A stretch of DNA of 64,000 nt from Eledone cirrhosa (GCA_964016885.1 OZ024752.1:27156001-27220000), one strand, 5' to 3'. Shown: positions 595 to 64,000, numbered from the stretch's first letter. Numbers and translations: made by a program. The notes: generated from the sequence alone by a model not told the origin.

Positions 595-902
595 GTAATT
601 TTCTTTGAATTTTATAGTAGTTGGGGCAGAATATTCAAACACTTGAGCAGAAGCGTGTGAATACATTTCACACCAATGTTGACATAAGTATCACGTTTTC
701 AAAGGATAACTTACTGTGTTAGAAAGCCGTCCTACATGAATGAATAATTTCCTAGTGATATTTTCGTGGTATTTTCTTCGTGGTTATAAGAGGCTTAGCT
801 CTGTTTCTCGACCGTTATATCGCGTGACTATCTCCCCCTCCGCCTTTTGGGATTCTTTCTCACGTCGTGTAGACGCGTTCTTGAGACTAGTAAAATGAGG
901 TA

Positions 903-990
903 TCCTCTTGATAAGTCGGCAGACCTCGCAAGGACTCTATTTCTTTGATATATTGTTTTTGTTTATGCCACGAAACTACGTAGTCGAGGA
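903..990 (+). ncRNA. Type I hammerhead ribozyme, U3-A8 core variant
   Basis: tcctc TTGATAA gtcggca...tgccac GAAA ctacgtag TC gagga: stem I tcctc/gagga, long stem II, palindromic stem III, GUC cleavage triplet. Confidence 0.75.
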
Positions 991-1493
991 ATTTAGGAAC
1001 AGTTTAGGTATGATACATTTTATTACTAATTATATCTAAATGTTTCTTCTCTCTTCATAATGTATTTTTAACTCTGATACTGGTTCAGTCTGGTTCAAAC
1101 TGAATTGGTCTGTCCCAGTCATTCATTGAGCAACATCGGTGAAGTTGGCACCCTTAACTCACAGTTGGGTGCGGATGCATTCATGTATATATGTGTGTGT
1201 CCGCATGTATCTGTGTGTTTCTAAATATATTAATAACTCCCTCTGGTCGAGCAATCTTTGAGGTGTGGGGACAACTGGAAAGCTTCCATTACTCATACTT
1301 CTCGCCTTCTTCACTACCTCTTCTGCGGCCTCGATATGAATACCCCCTCCGCCTCCGTGGTATTTTCTTCGTGGTTATAAGAGGCTTAGCTCTGTTTCTC
1401 GACCGTTATATCGCGTGACTATCTCCCCCTCCGCCTTTTGGGATTCTTTCTCACGTCGTGTAGACGCGTTCTTGAGACTAGTAAAATGAGGTA

Positions 1494-1581
1494 TCCTCTT
1501 GATAAGTCGGCAGACCTCGCAAGGACTCTATTTCTTTGATATATTGTTTTTGTTTATGCCACGAAACTACGTAGTCGAGGA
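1494..1581 (+). ncRNA. Type I hammerhead ribozyme, U3-A8 variant (copy 2)
   Basis: Same sequence as 903-990. Confidence 0.75.
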
Positions 1582-1650
1582 ATTTAGGAACAGTTTAGGT
1601 ATGATACATTTTATTACTAATTATATCTAAATGTTTCTTCTCTCTTCATA

Positions 1651-1716
<66 letters not shown>

Positions 1717-1727
1717 GTGTATATATG

Positions 1728-1815
<88 letters not shown>

Positions 1816-2427
1816 ATGCATATAGTGTTCTACAAATTATGTGGAAAAAAAATGAGAACATTTACATCGAAAAGGAAATGTAAAATCATACATTCACAGT
1901 ATTGTAGCAGGCTTTGGGGTATGGTGAACATATTCACTTCAGCAAACAATCCTGTGTTCAATCTTATCACGAGATACACAGGGCAAAGAACAGGTATATG
2001 GCTGTTGTTTCGGGTTGACTAATGCCTATTAAACGAAAGTGGGTTGGCGGAATATGTACAGTATCTGGATGTATTTATACACACGCTCGTGGACTTTTAT
2101 AAACATGTACGTGTGTTTGTATGCATGTATGTTTCTCTTTCTCTAAATTTCGAGTACATTTTTGACTGGCCACCTTCCTGGTGTCAAGGTTGTAAGAGAA
2201 AAGAATGTTTTGCAAACCCATTTGTAGTTTATGAATTAGGGAGCTGCGCGCTTTATCCACAAATCCAAGTTCAGTCATACTTTGGTCCAAGCGAGTTGGT
2301 ATATAACCTGTTACTTCAATAAATGGATATGAAGGTGGAGGTGTATCTTGGATACTGGATCTACAAACTCCTCATCAATGGTCCGTAGATGTCCTCCTTC
2401 TGTATTTTTTATGTTGTTTTTTTATTT

Positions 2428-2643
2428 TGTCGATCGACTTTCGTCAAATCGAACCGAGGAAACAATGTTTCCGTTGGTCTTTCCAATTGCTAATACTATG
2501 TATCGGTCGCATCTCCAGGTAGAAGGAGCAACGTGAAATAAAAGTGTCTTGCTCAAAGACATAACGCATCGTCCGGTCCAGGAATCGAACTGACAACCTC
2601 ACGATTGCTAATCAAGTTCTCTAACCAACCAGCCACACGCCTT
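2428..2643 (-). mobile_element. tRNA-derived SINE, family B
   Basis: Minus strand has A box (TGGCTGGTTGGTTAG), B box (GTTCGATTCC) and a ...gcaagacactt body; second copy at 9145-9354. Confidence 0.75.
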
Positions 2644-2738
2644 AACGGACATATCACGCTGAAAACACCGGTTCTCGTCCGATCACCGAATTTGAGCAAC
2701 GTCGAGCATAGTTAGTACTTAGATGGGTGACCGCTTGG
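2644..2738 (+). pseudogene. 3'-truncated 5S rRNA copy
   Basis: acggacatatcacgctgaaaacaccggttctcgtccgatcaccgaatttgagcaacgtcgagcatagttagtacttagatgggtgaccgcttgg matches invertebrate 5S rRNA roughly nt 5-98; 3' end replaced by microsatellite. Confidence 0.8.
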
Positions 2739-2883
2739 TATATATGTATGTATGTATGGGTGACCGCTTATGTATATATGTATGTATGTATGTATGTATG
2801 ATGTATTTATGATGTATATAGGTATGTAGGCATGTAAGTATATAGGAGCGGATCTATGTATGCATTCATTAGGGTTAGGATTA

Positions 2884-3070
2884 TGGATTGGCAGTATCGG
2901 TAGAGGGTCAGACGCCATGCTTTGCAAGCAAAGAGTTACGGCCCTTTATGGTCTGAGTTCAAATCCCGCTGAGGTTAACTTTGCCTTTCATCCTTACGGG
3001 GTCGATAAAATAACGTAACACAGTAATGCACTGGGTAATTGCTGGCCTTGTGCCAAAAGTAGAAACAATT
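2884..3070 (+). mobile_element. tRNA-derived SINE, family A
   Basis: A box TGGCAGTATCGG, B box GAGTTCAAATCC, body tttgcctttcatccttacggggtcgataaaat, tail gccttgtgccaaaagtagaaacaatta. Confidence 0.8.
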
Positions 3071-3457
3071 ATATATGTATGAATGTGTATATATATTTAT
3101 GTGTGTGTATATTTGTGTGTGTGTGTTTGTGTTTTCTGTCCTCGTCTGTGATTATGTTTAAATCAGTTTTGTGGCACAGTATGTCAAAGCATAGCATAGT
3201 GATTCGATAAGTATAGATCAAATATAAGAGTGGAACCGATACGATCGATTAAACAGTTTAAGAGAGTCTAACGGTTGAGCTAATGACAGAAAAGCGGAAA
3301 AGAACATAATAAGAAAATAATATACGAACACAGTATTTTCTGATATCACGGGCTATATATATAGATAGTAATACTGCAAAATATATTCAGCCCACTCACA
3401 TAAGCACACGCACAGTCACGCATATATACACACATACATATACAAACACACAAACAA

Positions 3458-3520
<63 letters not shown>

Positions 3521-3581
3521 CATATATACATATATACATATGTATATGTATATATGTATATGTATATATATGTATGTATAT

Positions 3582-3657
<76 letters not shown>

Positions 3658-3721
3658 ATAATATATAATATATATAATATATGGTGCACCGTATATATAT
3701 GTGTATGTATATATATAGAAA

Positions 3722-3907
3722 TAATTGTTTCTATTTTAGGCACAAGGCCAGCAATTACCTAGTACATTACTGGTACTTTATTTTATCGACCCCGTAAGGA
3801 TGAAAGGCAAAGTTAACCTCGGCCGGATTTGAACTCAGATCGTAAAGGGACGTAACTATGCTGGAAAGCATGTCCGACCCTCTACCGATACTGTCAGTTC
3901 ACCGCCC
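3722..3907 (-). mobile_element. SINE family A
   Basis: Reverse complement of the family A sequence. Confidence 0.8.
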
Positions 3908-3950
3908 TTTATATAGTAATACTATTTTCGAATCAGCGAGGGAGTTTGAA

Positions 3951-4183
3951 ATTATAAATGTAAGTTATCGCCGTATTTTGACTAAAGAAATTAAAGAAAT
4001 TATTTAGCCTGATAGTAGGGTTAAGAACCCTCAGAGAAATGGAAAAAGATGAGTATTGACGTACATGTACGTCAATGTACGTCAATACACATCTTTTTCC
4101 ATTTCTCCGAGGGTTCTTAACCCCACTATCAGGCTAAATAATTTCTTTAATTTCTTTAGTCAAAATACGGCGACAGCTTACAT

Positions 4184-5406: not shown

Positions 5407-6144
5407 GTAAGTATGCATGTATACGTACATACATATATGTATACAGACGTACAGTAGCATGCACATATATATATATATATACATATATACATACATATGC
5501 ATACAGGTACACATACATATATGCACGTATCAGTTTAGCGGCGCTTATTATAACGTCGCTTTGTTCGTTTGTAAACAAACTGAACAGCCTGAATTTATGC
5601 CATACGGTGTTAAGGCAACCACGTCACCTTTTTTGTTCAACACTGACACAGGAACGATGTACTAGTTTCAAGCTTGTTAGCTATCATCAGCACCTTTTAC
5701 CCATCTGCCAGATAGTTGAACGTTCGAAAGTATATACTTTCCTTATGAAAATTAACGGCTGAGCAGCCTAATTTGCATATTGAGTGAGTTAAATCGGTCA
5801 GGCATACCGAAAACGATAAATTGAAACAAAATGAAAACGAAATTTCATTTCTCACTCTTAGTATGGCACTTACTTAAATGTAAGTATGCATGTATACGTA
5901 CATACATATATGTATACAGACGTACAGTAGCATGCACATATATATATATATATATACATATATACATACATATGCATACAGGTACACATACATATATGCA
6001 CGTATCAGTTTAGCGGCGCTTATTATCACGTCGCTTTGTTCGTTTGTAAACAAACTGAACAGCCTGAATTTATGCCATACGGTGTTAAGGCAACCACGTC
6101 ACCTTTTTGTTCAACACTGACACAGGAACGATGTACTAGTTTCA
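5407..6144 (-). mobile_element. Retrozyme family 1, inverted arm (~1.5 units)
   Basis: Reverse complement of the 6142-8452 units; minus-strand HHR at 5654-5696. Confidence 0.85.
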
Positions 6145-6207
6145 GCCGTTAATTTTCATAAGGAAAGTATATACTTTCGAACGTTCAACTATCTGGCAGA
6201 TGGGTAA

Positions 6208-6250
6208 ACGGTGCTGATGATAGCTAACAAGCTTGAAACTAGTACATCGT
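6208..6250 (+). ncRNA. Minimal type I hammerhead ribozyme
   Basis: acggtg CTGATGA t agct-aaca-agct t GAAA ctag TA catcgt: stem I acggtg/catcgt, stem II agct/agct, palindromic CUAG stem III, GUA cleavage. Confidence 0.88.
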
Positions 6251-6681
6251 TCCTGTGTCAGTGTTGAACAAAAAGGTGACGTGGTTGCCTTAACACCGTA
6301 TGGCATAAATTCAGGCTGTTCAGTTTGTTTACAAACGAACAAAGCGACGTTATAATAAGCGCCGCTAAACTGATACGTGCATATATGTATGTGTACCTGT
6401 ATGCATATGTATGTATATATGTATATATATATATATATATGTGCATGCTACTGTACGTCTGTATACATATATGTATGTACGTATACATGCATACTTACAT
6501 TTAAGTAAGTGCCATACTAAGAGTGAGAAATGAAATTTCGTTTTCATTTTGTTTCAATTTATCGTTTTCGGTATGCCTGACCGATTTAACTCACTCAATA
6601 TGCAAATTAGGCTGCTCAGCCGTTAATTTTCATAAGGAAAGTATATACTTTCGAACGTTCAACTATCTGGCAGATGGGTAA

Positions 6682-6724
6682 ACGGTGCTGATGATAGCTA
6701 ACAAGCTTGAAACTAGTACATCGT
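6682..6724 (+). ncRNA. Minimal type I hammerhead ribozyme
   Basis: Same as 6208-6250. Confidence 0.88.
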
Positions 6725-7159
6725 TCCTGTGTCAGTGTTGAACAAAAAGGTGACGTGGTTGCCTTAACACCGTATGGCATAAATTCAGGCTGTTCAGTTT
6801 GTTTACAAACGAACAAAGCGACGTTATAATAAGCGCCGCTAAACTGATACGTGCATATATGTATGTGTACCTGTATGCATATGTATGTATATATGTATAT
6901 ATATATATATATATATATGTGCATGCTACTGTACGTCTGTATACATATATGTATGTACGTATACATGCATACTTACATTTAAGTAAGTGCCATACTAAGA
7001 GTGAGAAATGAAATTTCGTTTTCATTTTGTTTCAATTTATCGTTTTCGGTATGCCTGACCGATTTAACTCACTCAATATGCAAATTAGGCTGCTCAGCCG
7101 TTAATTTTCATAAGGAAAGTATATACTTTCGAACGTTCAACTATCTGGCAGATGGGTAA

Positions 7160-7202
7160 ACGGTGCTGATGATAGCTAACAAGCTTGAAACTAGTACATC
7201 GT
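7160..7202 (+). ncRNA. Minimal type I hammerhead ribozyme
   Basis: Same as 6208-6250. Confidence 0.88.
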
Positions 7203-7633
7203 TCCTGTGTCAGTGTTGAACAAAAAGGTGACGTGGTTGCCTTAACACCGTATGGCATAAATTCAGGCTGTTCAGTTTGTTTACAAACGAACAAAGCGAC
7301 GTTATAATAAGCGCCGCTAAACTGATACGTGCATATATGTATGTGTACCTGTATGCATATGTATGTATATATGTATATATATATATATATATGTGCATGC
7401 TACTGTACGTCTGTATACATATATGTATGTACGTATACATGCATACTTACATTTAAGTAAGTGCCATACTAAGAGTGAGAAATGAAATTTCGTTTTCATT
7501 TTGTTTCAATTTATCGTTTTCGGTATGCCTGACCGATTTAACTCACTCAATATGCAAATTAGGCTGCTCAGCCGTTAATTTTCATAAGGAAAGTATATAC
7601 TTTCGAACGTTCAACTATCTGGCAGATGGGTAA

Positions 7634-7676
7634 ACGGTGCTGATGATAGCTAACAAGCTTGAAACTAGTACATCGT
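7634..7676 (+). ncRNA. Minimal type I hammerhead ribozyme
   Basis: Same as 6208-6250. Confidence 0.88.
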
Positions 7677-8105
7677 TCCTGTGTCAGTGTTGAACAAAAA
7701 GGTGACGTGGTTGCCTTAACACCGTATGGCATAAATTCAGGCTGTTCAGTTTGTTTACAAACGAACAAAGCGACGTTATAATAAGCGCCGCTAAACTGAT
7801 ACGTGCATATATGTATGTGTACCTGTATGCATATGTATGTATATATGTATATATATATATATATGTGCATGCTACTGTACGTCTGTATACATATATGTAT
7901 GTACGTATACATGCATACTTACATTTAAGTAAGTGCCATACTAAGAGTGAGAAATGAAATTTCGTTTTCATTTTGTTTCAATTTATCGTTTTCGGTATGC
8001 CTGACCGATTTAACTCACTCAATATGCAAATTAGGCTGCTCAGCCGTTAATTTTCATAAGGAAAGTATATACTTTCGAACGTTCAACTATCTGGCAGATG
8101 GGTAA

Positions 8106-8148
8106 ACGGTGCTGATGATAGCTAACAAGCTTGAAACTAGTACATCGT
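8106..8148 (+). ncRNA. Minimal type I hammerhead ribozyme
   Basis: Same as 6208-6250. Confidence 0.88.
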
Positions 8149-8487
8149 TCCTGTGTCAGTGTTGAACAAAAAGGTGACGTGGTTGCCTTAACACCGTATG
8201 GCATAAATTCAGGCTGTTCAGTTTGTTTACAAACGAACAAAGCGACGTTATAATAAGCGCCGCTAAACTGATACGTGCATATATGTATGTGTACCTGTAT
8301 GCATATGTATATATGTATATATATATATATATGTGCATGCTACCGTACGTCTGTATACATATATGTATGTACGTATACATGCATACTTACATTTAAGTAA
8401 GTGCCATACTAAGAGTGAGAAATGAAATTTCGTTTTCATTTTGTTTCAATTTATATATATATTAATATATATATATGCATAAATATT

Positions 8488-9474: not shown

Positions 9475-9577
9475 GTGTGCATGTGTGAGCGTGTGTTTGT
9501 ATTTGTGTCATAGGTTATTCAAGCGTCATGGTCATACTTACTACTAAGATTGCACACTTATTTTCTTATTCCTACAG

Positions 9578-9685
9578 TCACAGTTGCGTTCCAACTATGA
9601 AGCCACCTGCAACCGAATTCTACCATTCTTGGAAAAAACTCTTCAAGTTAACAACAATGGAAATCAGTTCTTCCTAGGGAACCAG
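9578..9685 (+). CDS. S-crystallin / sigma-class glutathione S-transferase family, penultimate exon (SQLRSNYEATCNRILPFLEKTLQVNNNGNQFFLGNQ)
   Basis: ttttcttattcctacAG acceptor, GTaag donor at 9686, 36 codons; resembles cephalopod S-crystallin/GST C-terminal domain (YxxTCxRILPFLExTL...GNQFFxGxQ). Confidence 0.9.
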
Positions 9686-9894
9686 GTAAGATTTCTCGAC
9701 GTAAAAACCTATTTACGTATATACGTAAATATACGTGTTTATAAAGATATGGCAGATATAAAATAAATGGAGCTCCATCAGTTTCAACAAGAAGAGTTCC
9801 AGTTCTTCGACCAGTGGAATAGCCTGCTCAGGAAATAAACGTATATATATAAAAGATATGTCATATATATATATAAGATGTGTCATATATATAT

Positions 9895-12368: not shown

Positions 12369-12533
12369 CTGTTGCTGTGTGATGTCATGGCTCACACCAC
12401 TCTGGAAAATGTTGTTGAAGATTCGCCATCCATACTGAACGGATACCCAAAGCTTCGAGCTCACATGAATCGCGTCTCTGACCATCCAAAAATACATTCC
12501 TATCTCAAAGAACGTGCACCCACAGACTTCTGA
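12369..12533 (+). CDS. S-crystallin / sigma-GST last exon (LLLCDVMAHTTLENVVEDSPSILNGYPKLRAHMNRVSDHPKIHSYLKERAPTDF*)
   Basis: Pyrimidine tract and tttAG acceptor, in frame with previous exon, GST C-terminal motifs (LxLCD, YPKL, HPKIxxYLKxR..TxF), TGA at 12531-12533. Confidence 0.92.
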   Translation: MLLCDVMAHTTLENVVEDSPSILNGYPKLRAHMNRVSDHPKIHSYLKERAPTDF

Positions 12534-28627: not shown

Positions 28628-29282
28628 TATAGATAGGTAAATATACACGGGTGTGTATGATTGTGTATAGAAGATTATATTAATAAGAGGAATTCCAACT
28701 TTGTCTGATTTACTCGTTTTATTTACAATCCTTTAAAATATATATAATGGTATTATAATGAAATAGTATGATAGAATATTAAATTCTAAGTGTTAATTGA
28801 ACAAGTACTTTCATGCTTTCGCAATCTTCAGGTTCATGATATGTGGTGACAGTCGAGTTTGCAATTTTCAACTGTAATGAGATGGGTAAATTTCCTACCT
28901 TTTATACATTTTATACAGAGAAAAGTGGCTCCAGAATGCAAAGCCCTGTAAACTGTATTTCGACCAATCAGTGTGTAGTTTCACTGAATTACTACAGCTG
29001 ATTGGTTTAAGCGTCACGGCTGGTTGAGCATGCTAACGACCAATAGTCATATCCAACGTATCAATTGTTTTGCTTTTTTGAAATGATGAAAATAGCATTT
29101 TCTATTAATCATCACCATCAACATCACTTTTATTATTATTATTATTGTTGTTGTTGTTGTTGTTAGTGGTCGTGGTCATAGTGGTAGTAGAAGTAATACC
29201 CCTAGGCGTTATTATTGTTCATTTAGCTTGGGTTTGAATTTATCAATAAAATTCTTTTCTTTGATTTTTCTCTTGATTTCAT

Positions 29283-30452
29283 TTGGGCTGTGTTCCCGTT
29301 TACGCGAACTCTGTAATGGGATACTTAGAACAACAACTCTACCAAGAAATAGAGGAAAAATATAGTACTGACTTTAGAAAGTACATTGAAAAATCTTGGA
29401 AGAGATACCTTGACGACTGTTTCATCATCTGGACAGAATCTCTAGATACTCTGGATGAGTTCAATATCCTCCTGAATAACCTACACCCATCTCTCCAATT
29501 CACAAAAGAGATGAGTAGGACCAAATTACCATTCCTAGATATAATGATAATCAAAAACGACACCACCATTACCACGGATATATATTATAAACACACAGAC
29601 ACCCATCAATATCTGAATTTTAAGTCGTGCCATCCACCTCATACAAAACGCAACATCCCATACTGCCTAGCCAGAAGAATTTGTACCATTGTAGAAGATA
29701 CGAATACCAGGTACAAACGCCTAACAGAACTAAGAGAATTTTTGCTCAAACAAAAATACCCATCTCTACTTATAGAAAATGTCATACAGCGGGCTATAAA
29801 AATACCTATACAACAACTTAGAACAACCCAAAGAAGAAGAAACCAAGAACTGGTCATACCATTTATAATGACACACAACCCATGTCACCAGAATATCTTC
29901 AACACTGCCAAAGCAAACCTACCGATCATTGCTCAAAGTAATGAATTAAAAGGCTTAATCACAGATCGATCTTTGACTCTTAGTAAAAGACAGCCAAAAA
30001 ATTTGAAGCAATTGCTAACAAAAGCAAAGTTTGACCTTAACAACAAAGACCAATCATTCACTGTATCTAAATGCAATGATAATCGATGCGGCACATGTCA
30101 ATCCATACACGCCGGTCAATATATGAAAACAAAAACTGGAAAAATATTCACAAATGCAAATATGAACTGCAAAAGCAGAAATCTAATTTACTGCATTAAA
30201 TGCCCGAATTGTGAAGAACTATATGTCGGTCAAACTGGAAATGCACTATCGGAACGTGCACGGGTACACCGTCAACAAATCAGAGACCCAAATGTCCGTC
30301 AGATACCCCTAAGCGGCCACCTGGCAACATGTGGTCAGGGAATATTTATAATATTCCCATTCTACAAATTACACAGCCCAAATGAAATCAAGAGAAAAAT
30401 CAAAGAAAAGAATTTTATTGATAAATTCAAACCCAAGCTAAATGAACAATAA
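29283..30452 (+). CDS. PLE reverse transcriptase C-terminal half plus GIY-YIG endonuclease (5'-truncated, open)
   Basis: WKRYLDDCF, LPFLDI, DIYYKxTD, CNDNRCGTC linker, LIYCIKC..LYVGQT, RARVH; first few codons come from the inverted arm. Confidence 0.88.
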   Translation: MGCVPVYANSVMGYLEQQLYQEIEEKYSTDFRKYIEKSWKRYLDDCFIIWTESLDTLDEFNILLNNLHPSLQFTKEMSRTKLPFLDIMIIKNDTTITTDIYYKHTDTHQYLNFKSCHPPHTKRNIPYCLARRICTIVEDTNTRYKRLTELREFLLKQKYPSLLIENVIQRAIKIPIQQLRTTQRRRNQELVIPFIMTHNPCHQNIFNTAKANLPIIAQSNELKGLITDRSLTLSKRQPKNLKQLLTKAKFDLNNKDQSFTVSKCNDNRCGTCQSIHAGQYMKTKTGKIFTNANMNCKSRNLIYCIKCPNCEELYVGQTGNALSERARVHRQQIRDPNVRQIPLSGHLATCGQGIFIIFPFYKLHSPNEIKRKIKEKNFIDKFKPKLNEQ

Positions 30453-31009: not shown

Positions 31010-31447
31010 ATACATACAGGCACACATACATATATGCACGTATCAGTTTAGCGGACGCTTATTATAACGCCGCTTTGTTCATTTGTAAACAAACTGAACA
31101 GCCTGAATGTTTATGCCGTACGGTGTTAAGGCAACCACGTCACCTTTTTGTTCAACACTGACACAGGAACGATGTACTAGTTTCAAGCTTGTTAGCTATC
31201 ATCAGCACCGTACACCCATCTGCCAGATAGTTGAACGTTCGAAAGTATATTCTCTCCTTATGAAAATTAACGGCTGAGCAGCCTAATTTGCATATCGAGT
31301 GAGCTAAGTCGGTCAGGCATACCGAAAACGATAAGTTGAAATAAAATGAAAACGAAATTTCATTTCTCACTCTTAGTACGGCACTTACTTAAATGTAAGT
31401 ATGTGTTTATACGTACATACATATATGTATACAGACGTACAGTAGCA

Positions 31448-31510
<63 letters not shown>

Positions 31511-31832
31511 CATATATATACATACAGGTACACATACATATATGCACGTATCAGTTTAGCTGACGCTTTTTATAACGCCGCTTTGTTCGTTTGTAAACAA
31601 ACTGAACAGCCTGAATTTTTATGCCGTACGGTGTTAAGGCAACCACGTCACCTTTTTGTTCAACACTGACACAGGAACGATGTACTAGTTTCAAGCTTGT
31701 TAGCTATCATCAGCACCGTATACCCATCTGCCAGATAGTTGAACGTTCGAAAGTATATACTTTCCTTATGAAAATTAAGTAAGTGCCGTACTAAGAGTGA
31801 AAAATGAAATTTCGTTTTCATTTTATTTCAAC
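31010..31832 (-). mobile_element. Retrozyme family 1, ~1.5 units with short inverted segment (31778-31832)
   Basis: Minus-strand HHRs at 31169-31211 and 31677-31719. Confidence 0.82.
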
Positions 31833-31853
31833 TATATATATATATATATATAT

Positions 31854-31998: not shown

Positions 31999-32022
31999 TG
32001 TATATATGTATATATATATATA

Positions 32023-32428
32023 TATTTAGAAACACACAGATACATGCGGACACACACATATATACATGAATGCATCCGCACCCAACTGTGAGTTAAGGGT
32101 GCCAACTTCACCGATGTTGCTCAATGAATGACTGGGACAGACCAATTCAGTTTGAACCAGACTGAACCAGTATCAGAGTTAAAAATACATTATGAAGAGA
32201 GAAGAAACATTTAGATATAATTAGTAATAAAATGTATCATACCTAAACTGTTCCTAAATTCCTCGACTACGTAGTTTCGTGGCATAAACAAAAACAATAT
32301 ATCAAAGATATAGAGTCCTTGCGAGGTCTGCCGACTTATCAAGAGGATACCTCATTTTACTAGTCTCAAGAACGCGTCTACACGACGTGAGAAAGAATCC
32401 CAAAAGGCGGAGGGGGAGACAGTCACGC
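32023..32428 (-). mobile_element. Family 2 copy with U3-A8 HHR at 32260-32347
   Basis: Reverse complement of ~822-1228. Confidence 0.8.
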
Positions 32429-32448
32429 TATATATATATATATATAGG

Positions 32449-32645
32449 TACGTTATTCCGGGTTGAATCGGAGGTAACCACAGTAAGTAAGGTATTCAAT
32501 ACATTGCAGAGTATAACAGTTTTAATATATAGATGAGATTATACAGGACTAGAACAGTTTAATTCTTTAGAAATCATCAGGAATCTCTGATTCCTGATGA
32601 TTTCTAAAGAATGAAACAGTTCTAGTCCTGTAGAATCTCATCTAT
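32449..32645. mobile_element. Fold-back PLE family D, back-to-back HHR pair
   Basis: + HHR at 32589-32637 (gattc CTGATGA tttc-taaa-gaat GAAA cag-ttctagtc-ctg TA gaatc); minus copy 32536-32586 has GAAA changed to TAAA. Confidence 0.75.
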
Positions 32646-32654: not shown

Positions 32655-33580
32655 GTACTAAGAGTGATAAATGAAATTTCGTTTCATTCTATTCCATTTA
32701 TCGTTTTCGGTGCGCCTGGCCGTCTGAACTTACTCGATATGCAAATTGGGCTGCTCAGCCGTTCATTTTCATAAGGAAAGTATATATTTTCGGACGTTCA
32801 ACCATCTGGCAGAAAGGTATACGGTGCTGACGATAGCTAATAAGCTTGAAACTAGTACATCGTTCCTGTGTCAGTGTTGAACAAAAAGGTGACGTGGTTG
32901 CCTAAACACTATACGGCGTAATTCAGGCTGTTTGTTTGTTTACAAACGAACAAACTGAGCATTATAATAAATGTTCGGTAAACTGATACGTGCATATATA
33001 TATGTGTGCCTGTATGTATATATATACATGCTACTGTACGTCTGTATACATATATGTATGTACGTATACATACATACTTACATTTAAGTAAGTGCCGTAC
33101 TAAGAGTGATAAATGAAATTTCGTTTCATTCTATTCCATTTATCGTTTACGGTGCGCCTGCCCGACTGAACTCACTCGACATGCAAATTGGGCTGCTCAG
33201 CCGTTCATTTTCATAAGGAAAGTATATACTTTCGGACGTTCAACCATCTGGCAGAAAGGTATACGGTGCTGACGATAGCTAATAAACTTGAAACTAGTAC
33301 ATCGTTCCTGTGTCAGTGTTGAACAAAAAGGTGACGTGGTTGCCTAAACACTGTACGGCGTAATTCAGGCTAACTGTTTGTTTACAAACGAACAAACCGA
33401 GCATTATAATAAATGTTCGGTAAACTGATACGTGCATATATATATGTGTGCCTGTATGTATATATATACATGCTACTGTACGTCTGTATACATATATGTA
33501 TGTACGTATACATACATACTTTCATTTAAGTAAGTGCCGTACTAAGAGTGAGAAATGAAATTTCGTTTCATTCTATTCCA

Positions 33581-33582
<2 letters not shown>
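32655..33582 (+). mobile_element. Retrozyme family 1b, two tandem ~442-nt units
   Basis: HHRs at 32821-32863 and 33263-33305 (CTGACGA core); ends on (TA)n. Confidence 0.82.
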
Positions 33583-33797: not shown

Positions 33798-33888
<91 letters not shown>

Positions 33889-34271
33889 GAAAGTAAAACA
33901 AAGAAGCCTTCAATACATCAAAAGTCATTATTAGCCAACAATGTTTCGTCCTATTAAGGACTCATCAGGGCAATTAAAACAACAAGAAGTATTATTATTA
34001 CCGCTTACTTATAATAATAATAACATAATATCACATAGGTGTATCTGAACCCATCCATAAGTTAACCCACGGGACTCGTAATAGGGAATATAATACCTCT
34101 AGGAAACAAGTCGAACCCTCTGAGCGCTCACTCATTGGTGATAATTTTGCTAGATCTAATTCTAATAATGTTGCTTCTACTGATCCTATTATTGGCCCTA
34201 ATCCTTTTGATGGGATTCCAGACGACAGCAGATCTACTAGACGTAGAAACAGTAAGAGACTTAATGGAATT

Positions 34272-35165
34272 TTGGCTGATTCTAATAATGCGGTTTTAAC
34301 TAATCCTTGTAGTAACCCTAGTCTTAATAGTGGGATATTAGATAATGGTAGAGTCGGTAAGGATAAAAATAGAAGGAGACTAAATACTTATTTTAACCCG
34401 CCATATAATCAGGAAGTATTAACTAATATCCCTAGGTCTTTCTTTTCTATCTTAGAGAAAAATTTCCCCCCTTCTCATAAATACCATAGTATTTTTAATA
34501 AAAATGTTATTAAACTTTCATTCTCTACCACCCCTAATATTAGTTCTCATTTAGCTAGCACTAACAATAGGAAAATTAGGGATGGATTCTCGTCTCTACA
34601 TACTACTAGTCTGAACAGATCTGGAAATGCCTTACCACCAGAACAGACCTTACCTAATAGCAATCATACGTGTAATGCATCACTACTTCAGCCAACCAAT
34701 AGCACCCGGAAGTGTAACTGTAGAGTGAGTGCTAACTGCCCTTTAAACGGTAACTGCCTCTCTAAGAACATCGTCTATGCTTGCGTAGTTATAACTAATT
34801 CCTCTAATAGAACTTATATAGGCTCCACATCTAACACTTTTAAGACTAGGTTTAATTCTCATATCTCTAATTTCAAACATGTTAAGTTTAAGAATTCTAC
34901 TTCTTTAGCACACTATATCTGGGATCTTAAGGGGGCTAATATACCATATAGCCTTAATTGGCGTTTAGTAGCACGCTCTAATAACCTTTCTACACATACT
35001 AAATTTTGTAATCTCTGTATCCTCGAGACACACTCTATAATTTTCTCTAGCGAATCCTTACTTAATAGAAAGTCTGAGATATTCTCTTCTTGCCCCCACG
35101 CTATTTCTAATTCTTACTTTTATTATAAACCTAAAGTTTCTAGTAGTATAAATTGTATCCATTAG
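34272..35165 (+). CDS. PLE GIY-YIG endonuclease region (truncated)
   Basis: YFNPPY, CNCR..CPLNGNCL, NIVY...TYIG, FKTRFNSH, CNLCILE. Confidence 0.8.
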   Translation: MADSNNAVLTNPCSNPSLNSGILDNGRVGKDKNRRRLNTYFNPPYNQEVLTNIPRSFFSILEKNFPPSHKYHSIFNKNVIKLSFSTTPNISSHLASTNNRKIRDGFSSLHTTSLNRSGNALPPEQTLPNSNHTCNASLLQPTNSTRKCNCRVSANCPLNGNCLSKNIVYACVVITNSSNRTYIGSTSNTFKTRFNSHISNFKHVKFKNSTSLAHYIWDLKGANIPYSLNWRLVARSNNLSTHTKFCNLCILETHSIIFSSESLLNRKSEIFSSCPHAISNSYFYYKPKVSSSINCIH

Positions 35166-36513
35166 CTGATATATTCCATTACTTATTTTTTAGTTTAGGT
35201 TCTTTTTGTTTACCACCATTATTATCATCATTATTATCATTGGTTTTTGACAACTCTTTATTCTAGCTCTCATAATCTTTTGGCTACTATACCCTATCTA
35301 TCTTCTTACGCATTACATTTTCACTATTAACACCTTATGAGTATATATCTGATGATATATTTTACATTATTTTATTTTATTTCATTTTATTTTATTTTAC
35401 TTTATTTGGATTCTTCTTTGGATATTTTAAATATTTTTAATATTAATTTATCAAATAGGGTTTTCGGGTCATTTACCGGGGTTGTTTCCTAAGTTTTTAC
35501 TTAAGTGCATGTGAGACCTAAGTATATACTTTTGTTTTTGTTTTTTAATTTCCGGTTGATTCTATTTATTTATTTATTTATTAATACTACTGTGCATTCT
35601 ATTTACTGTTTGGCCCTTACTCACTCATCCACATATATGTTTGTTTACCAACCTTGTAATTATCAGTAATTATATATTATATTATGTTAATTATTTTATA
35701 TTGTATTTGTTATTGTACTATCGATCCTTATTACTTACCGTTGATTATATGTACCATTATGATATGTTAAATTTTATATATTATGTAAGATGTTTATATT
35801 TTTGTACCATCATAATTTTGGGTATTGTACAATTTATATTTTTTTCTCACCTACTATATGAATTGATTTGTTGACTTGCATGCCATTATATATTATATAT
35901 TATATATGTTATTATATTATTATTATAGTATTATTGTGACATCTATATTGTTTGTGTAAATTAACCGGAGATTATCTATTATATTATATTATATAGTATA
36001 TAATTGTATAGTTTATTATATATTATATGTGCTACTTATAATCATATCATATTATTACCTCATGCATATTAGATATACGGATTATTATTATTATTATTAT
36101 TATTATTATTTTTATTCCTATCATGCTTATTTATATTTAAACTCTTAATAAGGTTTAATTTGTGCTGTTAAAGATGGATATGTGTATTGATGTATGTGTA
36201 TATGTGCGTACGTGTGTATATATGTATATTGTACCTTTTAATTTTTATTGTAATTTTAATATTGTTACAAGTATATTATATTATATTATATAGTATTATA
36301 TATAATTCCCGCTCTATATAACCACCTTTTTTTTGCTCTAGGTTTTTTTTTGCTTTGGACTATATTTGTAATATGGTTCTAAATGTTATACACCTCCTTA
36401 GTGATTTTTATTACATATTTTCACCCATAATCTTGCAATACTTTAGTGTATGTACACTCCATATTCTTCGGAGTTTTCGGCTTGTATTGGCCGATAATAC
36501 TTCTTGTTATTTT

Positions 36514-36559
36514 AATTGCCCTGATGAGTCCTTAATAGGACGAAACATTGTTGGCTAAT
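36514..36559 (+). ncRNA. Minimal type I HHR
   Basis: attgcc CTGATGA gtcct-taat-aggac GAAA cattg TT ggctaat. Confidence 0.82.
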
Positions 36560-36719
36560 AAAGACTTTTGATGTATTGAAGGCTTCTTTGTTTTACTTTC
36601 ATAATTCTTCGGCTCTGTTTAATTACATTGAGCTATACCATTTACTGTCATTTCTATAATACTAAGAGGGTGTTTAACTCCAACACGCTCCAGTATTTTA
36701 ATCCTATATATATATATAT

Positions 36720-37698: not shown

Positions 37699-39842
37699 AA
37701 TGAAAAATAACAGGTAGACATCATAAAAAGGTAATTTATTCCGTGTGCTTACAAATGTTTCCACGGTGGTACTACAGCCTAGTTATGCTATGTGCAAATT
37801 TACAAGAATTTGCAGAACTCAAATATCCAATACTGTGACCACTGTATCCTCAGAGCAGAATGGTAAAATGTACAATGTAAATACCCTTAAGTGGGGTTGT
37901 TGTGGAAGATAGAGTAGGAAAGGAAGAGAGAAAAAAAAGTAGGGGAGAGGGAGAGAGAGAGAAAGATATGCAGGGGTTGGAGAAGTAGCAGAGAGTGGTT
38001 TGTAGATATCTTAATCAAAATGTTGTGGTAGGGGTTTTATTATACTGGTTACTTTTGGAGAGATGCGTTGATAGTTAAGGTCGGAATTATTTATTGCCCC
38101 AGAGGGCAGGTTCATAGATGTGGAGAGGGAGGTAGGCCAAAGGCGAGAGAGAGAGAGTGTAATGGATGTAGAGAGAGAGGTAGAGAGGGGACAGACGAAG
38201 TTTATGTGGTGAGTGAACTTTGGGTTTGTAGTAGTAATCTGTGAATTGCACTGAGTTACCATTTATAGTGATAAGCAGTGTATTGTCTTGTAGTGTTGGT
38301 GGAAGAGAGGGTGGTTAGCGAGAAAGCGATGTTATAGTTACGGGTTCGAATGTTAAGTTATTTTATAGTGAGAGAATTTAGCTTTTAGTTTGTGGTTGCA
38401 GTATAATGATCGTTCAATTCTATCGTTAAGTAGTTTGTTTTGGGATTTTAATATGTAAAAGAGTTCAAGGTTACATAACCTGCAGTATTTCAATCCACTC
38501 CGATATGCACTTGCGCTGGAAAGTATATCCCATTTTAAGGTGAACTGTTGGTTGCGTTCACGGAGTTGCCAGGTCTTGTTGGCGAGCGTGCTCACAAAAC
38601 GGTGATTAGGATGTTTGATTGAGAATCGATGACGGTACCAGCGAGATTTAAACGAGGTGGTAGTAGATCCGATATAATACCATTTCTGGTCGTTCGATTC
38701 AACCGTGCATTGGTAAACAATGTTGGACTTTAGGCATTCATTCTTCAATGAACATCTTTCAGGTAGATGGCAGTTACATTCTTTGTGTGGGTAGCGGGTA
38801 TACCATGGATAGGTTGTGATAGCGGTACAGGTGGATTGTGTAATACCCGTCTCCCATTTAGTGGTTGGGAGGCATAATATTACGTTCTGCCCATCTGTTA
38901 CTAAAATGTTTTGTTTTGTAGAGTTGTTTAATTGCCTTAAGTTAAGTTTTTTTTATGTATGCTTCAAGGTTTGGTTCTGTGGAGTATGATAGTCTAATAG
39001 TTTTAGAGTTCAGAATTTTGCTGTATTTATAGGAACTAGGGAAATGTTTGTTGATTAACTTAAAGAATGAAAGAGATATTGTTGTACTATTCGAGGCATT
39101 AAAAATAGGATTGTACCAGATATACTTTCTACAACGTGATTTATTTAGTGGTGATTTTCTATTATTAGTATGTCTGGTAGTACTGTCTGTGTGCGCTTGT
39201 ATTTTAGTCTCCCGGTTACATATTCCTTGATTTCGTGTAGAGCTATGTGTGTTATGGAAATTCCTATCAATGTGGGTATGGAGTGAGTATGGGCATACCA
39301 ACGGGTCTTAAAGTTGTTGGAGGTCATGCCGATGTAAGATTTTTGCAATCATCGGTGCCTGAGATGACATCGCATTTGTATACGATATCATTTGTGAGGC
39401 ATTTGTTTTCAAGTGGGCATGCTTCCTTATTTAGGCAATTACACAGAGCCCCAGTCCGGGGATTGGGTTCGGAGGTGGTTGGCTTATTGGATTTTTTAGA
39501 ATTCTGGTTGGCTATATTCCTAGCTAGGTTAGGTGTGGTGGAGTAGGAGAGTCTTGTTGTGTTCTTATTAAAGATGGTGTGGTACCTATGTTGTATGGGG
39601 AAGTGTAATTTCAGCAAAGTGAAGAAAATCCTAGCTATCGGTGTAGAGACATCTCTATTGAAGGGAGGGTTGTACCAGCTAATCTGCTTATGCCTATTCC
39701 TCCTCTGCAATCTTGCGGTGGTTTCTAGGTATGTTATCTTTTCTTTAAATCCGCTGCGGGCGAGGGCGTCATTGTAGTAGGAGGCAGATGCGTTAAAAAG
39801 GAGAGGCCAGATATTCTAATAGAGACGCTTTTTACTAGGTTT
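37697..39842 (-). mobile_element. Decayed PLE with two tandem GIY-YIG segments
   Basis: ORF pieces 39324-39710 (WYNPPF..CNC..CPL..IVY), 39145-39348 (SYIGMT), 38942-39301 (WYNP), 38353-38748 (IVY..YYIG..CRLC); HHR at 37746-37857. Confidence 0.78.
37746..37857 (-). ncRNA. Type I HHR with ~90-nt stem II
   Basis: Minus strand tgct CTGAGGA tacagtggt...accaccgtg GAAA catttg TA agca. Confidence 0.65.
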
Positions 39843-47746: not shown

Positions 47747-50408
47747 GACATTGGAAAGCTTGAGTCACTACTGAATGGGACACTAAAAAACATAGGCACT
47801 AAAAATAGACTGGAAATAAAGTACAAAACTAGGAGGAAAAAGCTAAATATTATCATAGAGGAACTGAAGCAACGCATTGTAGCAAAGAGTGCAAAAATCA
47901 GGCGATACGAGAACAGAGTCAGTCAGTATAGACAGAACCGCATGTTCGACAACAACCAGAAGATGTTGTTTGGACAGCTTGAAGGGAAAGAAAGAGGCAA
48001 CGACTTGATCCCTGAGGCGGAACAAACTAAAACATTCTGGAGAGGAATATGGGAGCAGGATGTTAAACATAATGACCAGGCAGAAGGAGATCAGTGAACA
48101 GGCACACCAACAAACTGATTTGAGTATCACAGTTGAAACTCTTAAGGGGCAGGCCAAAAATCTAACCAACTGGAAATCACCAGGCCCAGATGGTGTGCAG
48201 GGGTATTGGATTAAAAATATAACATCCCTCCACCCGAAACTGACAACCATGTTCAATGACTGCTTGATGTCAGGTGAGGTACCAGAGTGGTTGACAAAAG
48301 GTACCACAGTTCTGATAATGAAAGACCGAATCAAGGGTAATGGTGTTACCAACTATAGACCTATCACATGTCTGTCCGTAATGTGGAAACTGTTGACAAG
48401 CATTATGTCTGAAGAAATCTACCATCACCTCCACACAAACAACTTGTTACCGGACGAACAGAAAGGATGCCGAAAGAAGTCACGTGGTACAAAGGACCAG
48501 TTACTTATTGATAAGATGGTAATGAGGAATTGCAAGAGGAGGCACACTGGTCTTGCCATGGGATGGATAGACTACAAAAAGGCATATGACATGGTGCCTC
48601 ATTCTTGGATCACCAAAAGCCTGGAGATCTTCAAGGTGGCAGATAACATCAGACAGTTGTTGGGCAAAAGTATGAAGTCCTGGGAAACAGAGTTAACATC
48701 AACTGGAGAATCCTTGGGAAGCGTGAAGATCAAGAGCGGTATCTTCCAGGGAGATAGTCTGTCCCCTCTGTTGTTTGTCCTTGCCCTGATGCCCTTGACC
48801 ATTATGCTGCGAAAAGTGAGAGCAGGATACACGTTGGGAAGGGGAGAGCTTACCATCAATCACCTCCTCTTCATGGACGATCTTAAGCTCTTCGGGAAAA
48901 GTGAGAAGGAGTTGGATGTGCTTGTTGACACTGTCCGTATTTTCAGCAGTGATATATGTATGCAGTTTGGTATTGGTAAATGTGGAGTCATTGTGATGAA
49001 GAGGGGTAGGTTGAGCAGAAGTAACGGGATCCAGATACCAACAGGTGAGATGATAAAGGAAATTGACTCTGAGGAAGGATACAAGTATTTGGGCGTTCTG
49101 GAGGCTGATGGCATAAAGAACAAAAAAATGAAGGAATTGTTAAGAACTGAATACATTCGGAGAGTAAGGAGCGTATTGAAGTCACATCTGAACAGCAGAA
49201 ATGCCATAAGCGCAGTAAATTCCCGAGCTGTGTCTATTATTAGGTACAGTGCGGGAATTCTGAGATGGAATGTTGCTGAACAAAAAGAAATGGATAGGAA
49301 GACTAGGAAGCTATTGACTATCTACAACATGTTCCACAAGAGGAGTGATGTCGATAGACTCTACCTAAGGAGATCTGAGGGTGGAAGAGGTCTTATCAGC
49401 ATAGAGGACTGTGTTCAGATGGAGAAAAACAAACCTATACAAATACGTGACCTATAGTAAGGAGCCAATGCTCAGAGCTGTACTGAAGGAGGGGACAGTA
49501 GGCCAGGGGATATCCAAGGAGGAAATAACATCAAGGAGGAAGAGCAGCCTTAACGGAAAATCCCTTCATAGTACCTTCTTTGAGAAAACTGAATTTAGAG
49601 ATCCACAGACATGGAACTGGTTGAGAAGAGGAGACCTCAAAAAGGCTACAGAAGGAATGCTAATGGCTGCGCAGGAGCAGGCCCTCAAAACGAAGTGGTT
49701 GAAGCACCATATCTACAAGGAGGAGGCTAGCCCACTGAGCAGGATCTGTGGAGAGAGAGAGGAGACTGTGGCTCACATTGTGTCCGAGTGTAAACACCTA
49801 GCCCAGACCCACTATAAGGGCTGGAGACACGATGTGATGGGCAGGGTGATCCACTGGCACCTGTGCAAAGTAAACAATCTACCACATTCTGAGAAATGGT
49901 ATGAGCATAGGCCAGAGGCGGTGATGGAGAACAGTCAGGTGAAGGTGCTGTGGGATTTTAGGATACAGACGGACAAAAAACTGGAACACAATAGACCTGA
50001 CCTGGTGGTTGTGGACAAAGAAAAAAGATCGTGCCTGATTGTGGATGTGGCCTGCCCGTTCGACACGAGAGTGCAAGAGAAGGAGAGGGAGAAAATTAAC
50101 CGATACCAGGACCTAAAGTGGGAGGTGAAAAGGATTTGGAACTGCCATGAAGTCAAAGTGATCCCGATTGTCATAGGCGCACTGGGGACTATCTCCAAAG
50201 GTTTCCAGGGATGGTTAAAGAAAATCGGCCCCTTCACGCTTTTTGGAACGCTTCAAAAGGCATGCTTGCTTGGAACAGCAAGAACCCTCCGATACGTCCT
50301 GAATATCTGAGGCTGCAGGTAGTGGCTTGATATTCAATCCAACGGACTTTCCAGTTAACCAACATCAATGACTGAGATTCAAGGAATAATAATAATAATA
50401 ATAATAAT
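47747..50408 (+). mobile_element. R4/Dong-like family B, 5'-truncated, (TAA)n tail
   Basis: ORFs 48060-49457 (RT: KSPGPD, DYKKAYD, GIFQGDSLSP, FMDD) and 49411-50310 (zinc knuckle, NRPDLVV RLE). Confidence 0.88.
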
Positions 50409-53800: not shown

Positions 53801-54532
53801 ACGAAGTGGTTGAAGTACCATATTTACAAGGAGGAGGCTAGCCCACTGTGCAGGATCTGTGGAGAGAGTGAGGAGACTGTGGCTCACATTGTGTCCGAGT
53901 GTAAACACCTAGCCCAGACTCACTATAAGGGCTGGAGACACGATGTGATGGGCAGGGTGATCCACTGGCACCTGTGCAAAGTAAACAATTTACCACATTC
54001 TGAGAAATGGTATGAGCATAGGCCAGAGGCGGTGATGGAGAACAATCAGGTGAAGGTGCTGTGGGATTTTAGGATACAGACGGACAAAAAACAGGAACAC
54101 AATAGACCTGACCTGGTGGTTGTGGACAAAGAAAAAAGATCGTGTCTGATTGTGGATGTGGCATGCCCGTTCGACACGAGAGTGCAAGAGAAGGAGAGGG
54201 AGAAAATTAACCGATACCAGGACCTAAAGTGGGAGGTGAAAAGGATTTGGAACTGCCATGAAGTCAAAGTGATCCCGATTGTCATAGGCGCACTGGGGAC
54301 TATCTCCAAAAGTTTCCAGGGATGGTTAAAGAAAATCGGCCCCTTCACGCTTTTTGGAACGCTTCAAAAGGCATGCTTGCTTGGAACAGCAAGAACCCTC
54401 CGATACGTCCTGAATATCTGAGGCTGCAGGTAGTGGCTTGATATTCATTCCAACGGACTTTCCAGTTAACCAACATCAATGACTGATATTCAAGGAATAA
54501 CAACAACAATAATAATAATAATAATAATAATA
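50850..54532 (+). mobile_element. Near full-length R4/Dong-like family B element (5' boundary uncertain)
   Basis: ATG at 51028, premature TAA at 51169, RT ORF to 53568, +1 shift to CCHC/RLE ORF ending 54421, 3' UTR and (TAA)n tail. Confidence 0.88.
51028..54421 (+). pseudogene. RT plus restriction-like endonuclease ORF of the family B element, disabled by one stop and one frameshift
   Basis: N-terminal RTNWTK*LNRTVMQCY, full RT motifs, CRICG..ETVAHIVSEC, RHD, RPD..D..K. Confidence 0.85.
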
Positions 54533-62874: not shown

Positions 62875-62979
62875 ATGTATGTATGTATGTATGTATGTAT
62901 GTATGTATGTATATATATAAAGAATATAAAGAATAAAATAACCAGGATGGTTGTCTTATCAACTTGTCTAAACAAATTA

Positions 62980-64000
62980 CATCGTTCCTGTGTCAGTGTT
63001 GAACAAAAAGGTGACGTGGTTGCCTTAACACCGTATGGCATAAATTCAGGCTGTTCAGTTTGTTTACAAACGAACAAAGCGACGTTAGCGCCGCTAAACT
63101 GATACGTGCATATATGTATGTGTACCTGTATGCATATGTATGTATATATGTATATATATATATATATATGTGCATGCTACTGTACGTCTGTATACATATA
63201 TGTATGTACGTATACATGCATACTTACATTTAAGTAAGTGCCATACTAAGAGTGAGAAATGAAATTTCGTTTTCATTTTGTTTCAATTTATCGTTTTCGG
63301 TATGCCTGACCGATTTAACTCACTCAATATGCAAATTAGGCTGCTCAGCCGTTAATTTTCATAAGGAAAGTATATACTTTCGAACGTTCAACTATCTGGC
63401 AGATGGGTAAACGGTGCTGATGATAGCTAACAAGCTTGAAACTAGTACATCGTTCCTGTGTCAGTGTTGAACAAAAAGGTGACGTGGTTGCCTTAACACC
63501 GTATGGCATAAATTCAGGCTGTTCAGTTTGTTTACAAACGAACAAAGCGACGTTGGCGCCGCTAAACTGATACGTGCATATATGTATGTGTACCTGTATG
63601 CATATGTATGTATATATGTATATATATATATATATATATGTGCATGCTACTGTACGTCTGTATACATATATGTATGTACGTATACATGCATACTTACATT
63701 TAAGTAAGTGCCATACTAAGAGTGAGAAATGAAATTTCGTTTTCATTTTGTTTCAATTTATCGTTTTCGGTATGCCTGACCGATTTAACTCACTCAATAT
63801 GCAAATTAGGCTGCTCAGCCGTTAATTTTCATAAGGAAAGTATATACTTTCGAACGTTCAACTATCTGGCAGATGGGTAAACGGTGCTGATGATAGCTAA
63901 CAAGCTTGAAACTAGTACATCGTTCCTGTGTCAGTGTTGAACAAAAAGGTGACGTGGTTGCCTTAACACCGTATGGCATAAATTCAGGCTGTTCAGTTTG
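62980..64000 (+). mobile_element. Retrozyme family 1 tandem array (more than 2 units, runs off the window)
   Basis: HHRs at 63411-63453 and 63881-63923; array starts at catcgttcc, the predicted 3' cleavage product. Confidence 0.88.

Follow-up and report, generated by a model that had tools for sequence, protein, structure and literature searches.

The stretch of the Eledone cirrhosa genome analysed here (GCA_964016885.1 OZ024752.1:27156001-27220000, 64,000 nt, hereafter the window; the genome measures 3.0 Gb) carries, at 765-1655 on the plus strand, an insertion of a 591-nt repeat family with two copies of a hammerhead ribozyme motif whose consensus C3-G8 letters are replaced by U3-A8. We consider it fairly probable that this family is a young non-coding retroelement, likely mobilised in trans by Penelope-like elements (PLEs), and that its U3-A8 hammerhead, predicted to self-cleave at C17|G1.1, does so, probably as a dimer. 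The region has a bona fide type-I hammerhead architecture with a known U3-A8 core, and the repeat is not a plain tandem repeat but a Penelope-type retroelement insertion, a point missed by an earlier note made from the sequence of the window.

The insertion and its hammerhead motif

Sequence reading and a repeat finder both give a 300-nt direct repeat at this place, 765-1064 being 100% identical to 1356-1655 at a spacing of 591 nt, which bears out the unit length proposed in the earlier note. The insertion comprises 1.5 units (765-1655, plus strand): it is truncated at the 5' side at unit position 371, continues through one full unit and has its 3' end at unit position 80 inside a (TA)n tract. 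Its two motif copies, at 903-990 and 1494-1581, are identical and offset by +591, with predicted cuts at 985|986 and 1576|1577; between these cuts lies a 591-nt monomer (986-1576, plus strand). The remaining 3' tail (unit 1-79/80; 1577-1655, plus strand) adopts a long hairpin fold and terminates in ...CAUAAUGUAU at one of the two fixed 3' ends of the family. The (TA)n microsatellite adjoining it (1654-1795) is the usual target or flank of the 591-nt family. A third copy, containing unit 422-591 followed by 1-245 (32020-32434, minus strand), ends at the second fixed 3' end (~245) with (TA)n on both sides, and its motif (32260-32347, minus strand) is predicted to cut between 32265 and 32264. The 18-mer TTGATAAGTCGGCAGACC of the 5' core matches three times in the window, at 908 (+), 1499 (+) and 32342 (-), where 0.02 matches are expected and three were reached in 0 of 100 shuffles; the TTGATAA core, helix I, GAAA, palindromic helix III and GUC are indeed found in all three copies, as first reported. 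Window positions 941 and 1532 are T where 292 of 297 compared copies, and contigs of two sequencing runs, have A, and the window insertion therefore belongs to a minor variant of its family.

Each plus-strand copy in the window reads UCCUC-UUGAUAA-(57 nt)-GAAA-CUACGUAG-UC-GAGGA. In copy 1, helix I is made of 5 bp between 903-907 (UCCUC) and 986-990 (GAGGA), and the core strand UUGAUAA occupies 908-914 (U3 908, U4 909, G5 910, A6 911, U7 912, A8 913, A9 914). Helix II extends over 915-971, with 6 closing bp (915-921/966-971, C917 bulged) followed by a 44-nt interior that forms a further 8-bp helix. G12-A14 (GAA) lie at 972-974, helix III is the 10-nt palindrome ACUACGUAGU at 975-984, with A15.1 (975) and U16.1 (984) included, and the predicted scissile bond is 3' of C17 (985). 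Stem III had been described as an 8-nt palindrome; it is a palindrome, of 10 nt once A15.1 and U16.1 are counted, which can form either a 3-bp hairpin or a 10-bp intermolecular duplex. The bulged C917 belongs to a CpG and shows 17 variants in 230 copies, more than any other non-diagnostic position of the motif; C17-G1.1 is a CpG too, and C17 changes mostly to T.

Three helices surround the core and helix I is open, as in type I, and all the invariant letters of this type are present (U4 G5 A6 N7 A9, G12 A13 A14, A15.1-U16.1, and an H17 that is not G). In the consensus hammerhead C3 and G8 form a tertiary Watson-Crick pair; these letters are absent here, and U3-A8 keeps the ability to pair at positions 3 and 8. 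In its palindrome and the lengths of its helices the motif agrees with the minimal, dimeric hammerheads of PLEs; it departs from them in the 44-nt interior of helix II and in a carrier without a PLE open reading frame (ORF).

A genome-wide family with the insertion anatomy of Penelope-like elements

The genome contains 5,964 exact matches to the 5' core context ATCCTC-N-TGAT-N-AGTCGGCAGACC and 6,444 matches to C17 plus the next 31 nt, and control patterns read backwards gave 0 matches in the same search. The unit was first mapped on 15 merged regions, and the array census covers 153 arrays that lie wholly inside unselected loci. The 3' ends of these arrays fall at ~80 in 79 of the 153 and at ~245 in 65, with 9 elsewhere (144/153 at fixed ends), and (TA)n follows immediately in 137/153. 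Head-to-head contact of the 5' end with an inverted copy was seen in 99/153 arrays, and 79/153 are more than a unit long. The 162 distinct 5' ends occur all along the unit (at most 3 at any position, 2/162 at positions 591/1/2), and 0 of 182 insertion 3' ends lie at unit 591. Arrays are short and dispersed across all large contigs, and copies at 80% identity keep the core. Among 100 family copies listed, there was no same-strand pair 1-6 kb apart.

According to Craig et al. 2021 (PMC8557442), PLE insertions combine fixed 3' ends with variable 5' truncation and are further marked by partial tandems (pseudo-LTRs; LTR, long terminal repeat), a neighbouring inverted copy truncated on its 5' side and a preference for (TA)n. 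All of these are found in the 591-nt family: fixed 3' ends, truncated 5' ends, partial tandems, inverted 5'-truncated neighbours and the microsatellite bias. The ORFs of at least 45 aa inside 740-1627 include none that matches any Pfam family; the reverse transcriptase (RT) plus GIY-YIG coding capacity of an autonomous PLE is therefore missing, and the 591-nt element is non-autonomous. Since fixed 3' ends, 5' truncation, tandems, inverted arms and (TA)n are PLE hallmarks, the element can be described as a non-autonomous, retrozyme-like passenger. It is also, as non-LTR retrozymes are, a non-coding tandem unit with one type-I hammerhead per unit. The insertion polarity, set by the fixed 3' end, defines the RNA-sense strand, and the hammerhead is on that strand. 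As a candidate link to other elements we considered a shared TTCATAAT/GTTTCTTCT tail motif, which was not above shuffles.

An ordinary satellite, or a segmental tandem duplication by unequal crossing-over, would also give a tandem with a constant 591-nt period, and one contig of a sequencing run does measure 621 nt (591 + 30), as a collapsed tandem repeat would assemble. Such an origin is nevertheless extremely improbable given short dispersed arrays with fixed 3' ends, variable 5' ends, inverted arms and flanking (TA)n in the proportions given above.

U3-A8 in two unrelated families, and covariation between families

An autonomous PLE of the same genome (locus L347, G000:C1:36493000-36499000) contains a 770-aa ORF with RVT_1 and GIY-YIG domains at 1717-4026 and two hammerheads, one at 915 (-), inverted upstream, and one at 5067 (+), direct and ~77 nt before the (TA)n-flanked 3' end; the corresponding distance in the 591-nt family is 80 nt. 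Its compact motif, UUGAAAA...GAAACCGGUA, is unrelated in sequence to the 591-nt family, often occurs as close head-to-head pairs, and has 11,192 exact genome copies, with U..A in 99 of the first 100 matches listed. As a U3-A8 motif flanks the RT plus GIY-YIG ORF, the autonomous PLE of this genome uses, by its sequence, a U3-A8 hammerhead. A single animal genome thus has two very abundant families, unrelated to each other, in which most copies are U3-A8, and one of the two resides in an autonomous PLE.

In order to see how positions 3 and 8 vary, copies were counted within the 591-nt family and hammerheads were compared between families. Within the family, 5,941 of 5,964 copies are U3/A8. Another base stands at position 3 with A8 in 11 copies (C 5, G 4, A 2) and another base at position 8 with U3 in 12 (G 7, U 4, C 1), and C3/G8 occurs in 0 copies. 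A single fixed state accompanied by 23 rare, independent single changes is expected of a young family that decays neutrally, and holds no signal of covariation within the family. A canonical C3-G8 ancestor, sought with the pattern CTGATGAGTCGG N30-70 CCACGAAA, had 0 genome matches.

The comparison between families allowed all 16 letter pairs at 3/8 and took in the window, 655 kb of retrieved loci and a further 600 kb of genome picked arbitrarily. It returned eight C3-G8 sequence types (TTGCC, TCATT, TATTG, ACCTT-CUGACGA, GCTAT, TAGTC, AAGCT and GTCTC), three of which are single matches, and two U3-A8 types, namely the 591-nt family and the compact ACCUU-UUGAAAA-GCAG...CUGC-GAAACCGGUA motif. 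The GTCTC type is C-G in 23 of its 26 copies, and the sole U-G match is a mutated copy of it; one extra C-G single match and one U-U match look like chance. None of the types has a mixed majority state, and the Fisher probability of 8/0/0/2, taken at face value, is 1/45. Across families the helices differ completely and the core is kept. Covariation at 3/8 is real between families and not within the 591-nt family; the compensatory change claimed in the earlier note holds in the first sense (8 C-G, 2 U-A, none mixed) and fails in the second.

Several canonical types share a long helix II and a palindromic helix III of 8-10 nt, and the odd shape of the motif is therefore a trait of this genome's hammerheads. 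Canonical-core families with ~45-57 nt between A9 and G12 and an 8-10-nt palindromic helix III were observed at loci L336-L345, at L147, at L143, L047 and L122, and at ~5370 (-) in the window; one of them (GTCTC-CUGAUGA) is a ~650-nt tandem with 26 pattern matches.

With a motif of this shape, it may be asked whether a relaxed pattern has simply been fitted to a repeat unrelated to ribozymes. Two core positions were relaxed and a 57-nt helix II was allowed, a 3-Gb genome offers many trials, and Rfam gives no match. Yet the relaxed descriptor (5-bp helix I, NUGANNA, helix II of at least 4-5 bp enclosing at most 80 nt, GAAA, a helix III that is a palindrome or a hairpin, H17) had no U3-A8 match in the window other than the three family sites, and 300 dinucleotide shuffles of the 64-kb window gave 0 U3-A8 matches and 1 C3-G8 match. 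Moreover, the motif lies on the RNA-sense strand ~80 nt from a PLE-type 3' end, where PLE hammerheads sit (77 nt in L347), its long helix II and palindromic helix III are common to other hammerheads of this genome, the core persists at 80% identity, and the dimer of minimum free energy (MFE) is a double hammerhead. A chance look-alike is, on this evidence, very improbable.

Predicted cleavage and the 5'-junction census

Cleavage by the U3-A8 motif is likely, as predicted from sequence and fold. When two copies of 886-1000 were co-folded without constraint, they formed a double hammerhead at -51.1 kcal/mol, against 2 x -19.2 kcal/mol for the monomers, with helix I in trans, helix II in cis and a helix III of 10 bp between the two molecules. 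Folding of the complete 591-nt monomer also gives a strong structure, with an MFE of -172.8 kcal/mol (z -5.05; 0 of 100 shuffles as good) and helix II in the MFE fold.

For an indirect view of cleavage, we counted the 5' ends of insertions near the predicted cut. The census required 31 nt of exact tail sequence and, before it, a base that departs from the consensus; every match was inspected, and those that were not true junctions were point changes. True junctions numbered 14 of 28 matches at unit position 590, 6 of 22 at 591, 31 of 61 at position 1, 28 of 50 at position 2 and 4 of 16 at position 3. At least 3 of the 14 at 590 are head-to-head CCUC|GAGG joins of two position-1 ends, and the 6 at 591 are about the number expected from position-1 ends with a chance preceding C. 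On contigs C1-C4 only, there were 18 and 15 junctions at positions 1 and 2, against 4, 4 and 9 at 3, 591 and 590 and 3-5 at control position 22, which falls on the subfamily variant A21G and of which part of the rows was usable. A uniform baseline from unselected ends has an upper bound of ~12 per position. The peak is two nucleotides wide and stands on the bond that had been predicted beforehand from the motif. We propose that the excess at unit 1-2 arises because some complementary DNAs (cDNAs) stop at a ribozyme-made 5' end. Such a census is a cheap, sequence-only test for ribozyme cleavage in vivo that could be extended to other retrozyme families.

A number of results weigh against this reading. 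Rfam found no hammerhead in 600-1800 even at E<=10, as the earlier note had foreseen for standard searches; at the gathering threshold its sole match in the whole window is a 5S rRNA. However, it also scores the canonical PLE hammerhead of the window (36515-36559) below threshold (Hammerhead_1, 29.1 vs 34 bits). The MFE fold of the 886-1000 monomer (-19.2 kcal/mol; z +0.79 vs shuffles) is not a hammerhead, and the hammerhead-constrained fold is 1.6 kcal/mol worse. At 3-5 fold the junction excess is modest, and it includes some segmental duplicates (L097/L098; L183/L210/L211); the same footprint would be left by transcription starting at G1/A2 or by the reverse transcriptase stalling beside the palindrome. 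In the compact U3-A8 family the contrast is weak: 17 of 30 matches examined at position 1 are breaks (~116 estimated of 205 matches), against 6-10 of 30 at four neighbouring positions (~33-78 estimated), and an AAA run blurs the assignment. No partner element was recognised by sequence when the family was compared with the 474-nt CUGAUGA repeat, the PLE 3' region at 36480-36705, the canonical GTCTC family and the U3-A8 PLE of L347.

Sequence variation tells in the same direction. With the natural permutation 765-1355 as BLAST query, G12..C17 shows 17 variants in 3,580 cells (0.0047), beside a median of 0.005, and ranks 38th of 557 windows. Point changes at U3, A8, G16.2, U16.1, G1.1 and A1.2 number 11-22 each per ~6,000-6,500 copies and those at C17, which is in a CpG, 30, in resemblance to neutral decay. 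Among distinct copies of a family that is too young for this purpose, changes that keep and break pairing stand at 1/10 in helix I, 2/9 in helix II and 0/2 in helix III, the unfavourable ones being those of helices I and II; in the extension of helix II, 24 changes keep and 10 break pairs (purine transitions opposite a U run). There is thus no evidence of purifying selection on the core within the family, and in it the description of the variant as 'selected' is not borne out, its core being no more conserved than the median position. Finally, the literature describes PLE hammerheads as acting in dimers, with minimal forms that cleave poorly in vitro (Cervera & de la Pena 2014, PMC4209133), and Naiad PLEs as spreading well without canonical hammerheads (PMC8557442). 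Given these two reports, copy number proves nothing about catalysis.

These observations are what would be expected of a relic ribozyme, descended from a PLE-type hammerhead, whose cleavage has been lost or is negligible: the uncut multimer would be copied by PLE enzymes, and the peak would mark a G1/A2 transcription start or an RT stop. Along with the unconserved core, the silence of Rfam, the monomer fold and the weak or dispensable hammerheads of other PLEs, this explanation can draw on the 44-nt interior of helix II, in which the small loop 2 that normally touches helix I is lost, on a peak that covers a pair of purines (G1 and A2), as might be seen at a start site, and on the absence of unit 591 from the 182 insertion 3' ends. 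We nonetheless regard it as unlikely. The peak coincides with a phosphodiester predicted in advance, at 1-2 of 591 positions; the MFE of the dimer co-fold is the active double hammerhead; 5,941 of 5,964 copies of this young family keep every invariant core letter; U3-A8 cores are reported as active in vitro (PMC3088659); and the identical core swap is kept in a second, unrelated and more abundant PLE hammerhead.

Under the cleaving-retroelement interpretation that we prefer, array transcripts would be multimeric, and neighbouring motifs would pair through the 10-nt palindromic helix III into a double hammerhead that cuts the multimers into 591-nt units. The reverse transcriptase of a PLE would use nicks in (TA)n to prime at two AU-rich positions in the RNA, and cDNAs would end at random or at the ribozyme-made 5' end. 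By analogy with the retrozyme model, the 591-nt monomer may also circularise. A more ambitious combination of these elements is possible, and we put it forward only tentatively: the sharp excess of 5' ends right at the predicted scissile bond could be a genomic fossil of in vivo cleavage by a U3-A8 hammerhead with a 57-nt helix II, and the most successful Penelope system of this lineage, with at least 17,000 motifs in an autonomous PLE family and the 591-nt passenger, could have U3-A8 as its working ribozyme. The templates of that system would be multimers cleaved in part, or circles, copied from two fixed starts primed by (TA)n. If this were true, ribozyme activity and the copying mechanism of PLEs would be readable from genome sequence alone.

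Other features of the window

The first repeat family of the window has a 442-474-nt tandem unit and is found at 6142-8454, 62978-64000 and 32655-33582 (+), and at 31020-31400 and 31560-31850. The unit contains a canonical CUGAUGA...GAAACUAGUA hammerhead in which 10.1/11.1 is U.U, with a weak match to Rfam Hammerhead_HH9 (18.5 bits, E 0.08). Copies of it in both orientations flank the third 591-nt copy, and between the 442-nt repeat and that copy, at 32560-32640 (-), lies a perfect inverted repeat with ~35 nt per arm (…tctttagaaatcatcaggaatc / gattcctgatgatttctaaaga…).

A Penelope-like element occupies 33887-36705 between two (TA)n tracts. Its ORF (34029-35165, +) has a GIY-YIG match that stays under the Pfam cut-off (E 0.0009). 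Close to the 3' end of the element is a canonical minimal hammerhead (~36515-36559, +), and an inverted copy of this 3' module at the 5' side carries another (~33930-33975, -). Further GIY-YIG ORFs are at 29277-30452 (+) and 38353-38952 (-). The plus strand at 48009-49457, 51172-53568 and 53516-54421 carries two RVT_1 ORFs (E 1.7e-24 for the first, 3.1e-23 for the second) and, after the second of them, a weak match to zf-RVT that stays under the Pfam cut-off (E 0.0008); these are two adjoining LINE-like copies.

A 5S rRNA match (2641-2760, +; 64.7 bits, E 2.5e-11) runs at its 3' end into a GTAT microsatellite. ARAGORN found no tRNA in 2300-3100, though the sequence just upstream of the 5S match looks tRNA-like by eye. 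Finally, two exon-sized ORFs on the plus strand match the C-terminal GST domain GST_C_3, one at 9548-9763 with E 0.006, which is under the Pfam cut-off, and one at 12369-12530 with E 3.8e-7, and indicate a sigma-class GST or S-crystallin-like gene. The earlier note remarked that the 591-nt copies are sense to this gene, which is partly right: the two plus-strand copies are upstream on the same strand, with the GST_C_3 exons ~8 kb downstream of them, but the third has the reverse orientation and lies 20 kb past the last exon recognised. Because the exons are on the plus strand and the third copy is on the other, the remark carries little weight.

Comparison with known systems

The U3-A8 variant is not new, being described already in two papers. 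Perreault et al. 2011 (PMC3088659) report that C3/G8 covary to U3/A8 in several natural hammerheads, and attribute the in vitro activity of 3/8 exchanges to Przybilski & Hammann 2007. The hammerheads of Perreault et al. were found comparatively, in organisms and contexts other than this one, and have the same compensated change as the 591-nt family. From Schistosoma PLEs (Schistosoma mansoni Cercyon-type), Cervera & de la Pena 2014 (PMC4209133) report a U3-A8 variant that has ~1,300 matches. Among open papers, we found none further that paired U3-A8 or A8-U3 with a hammerhead. As the core swap was described in 2011 and 2014, knowledge of hammerhead chemistry is unchanged by the present results.

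In the account of PMC4209133, helix I of PLE hammerheads is short, helix II is longer and has a base left unpaired, and helix III is palindromic. The motif of the 591-nt family resembles the Cercyon-type hammerheads in being type I with U3-A8, in its 5-bp helix I, longer helix II with an unpaired base on the 5' side and small palindromic helix III implying a dimer, and also in its thousands of copies, close opposite-strand pairs and PLE context. Unlike them, it has 57 nt between A9 and G12 (44 of them extra in helix II) and a 591-nt carrier without an RT/GIY-YIG ORF, belongs to another species, and has a predicted cleavage.

With Naiad/Chlamys and other EN+ PLEs (PMC8557442) the 591-nt family shares the anatomy of its insertions. 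Naiads differ from it in that they are described there as lacking canonical hammerheads, and are said to be only remnants in cephalopods; the same source reports 'half-core' motifs with halves 35-50 nt apart. The autonomous PLE of L347 differs from Naiad/Chlamys and other EN+ PLEs in its C-terminal GIY-YIG, and the 591-nt family in having no ORF.

Metazoan non-LTR retrozymes, as described by Cervera & de la Pena 2020 (PMC7229834), have units of ~300 nt. The 591-nt family is like them in its short dispersed tandem arrays, non-coding sequence, one type-I hammerhead per unit, thousands of copies and structured monomer, and unlike them in the length of its unit (591 vs ~300 nt) and its U3-A8 core; the likeness is one of sequence, the functional definition of these retrozymes being the expression of circular RNA. 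A preprint (Li, Clavereau & Pollet 2026, 10.64898/2026.07.22.740005) proposes that animal retrozymes derive from and depend on PLEs, and with its ~6,000 young, clean-ended copies the 591-nt family provides a well-documented case for this recently proposed link between animal retrozymes and PLEs.

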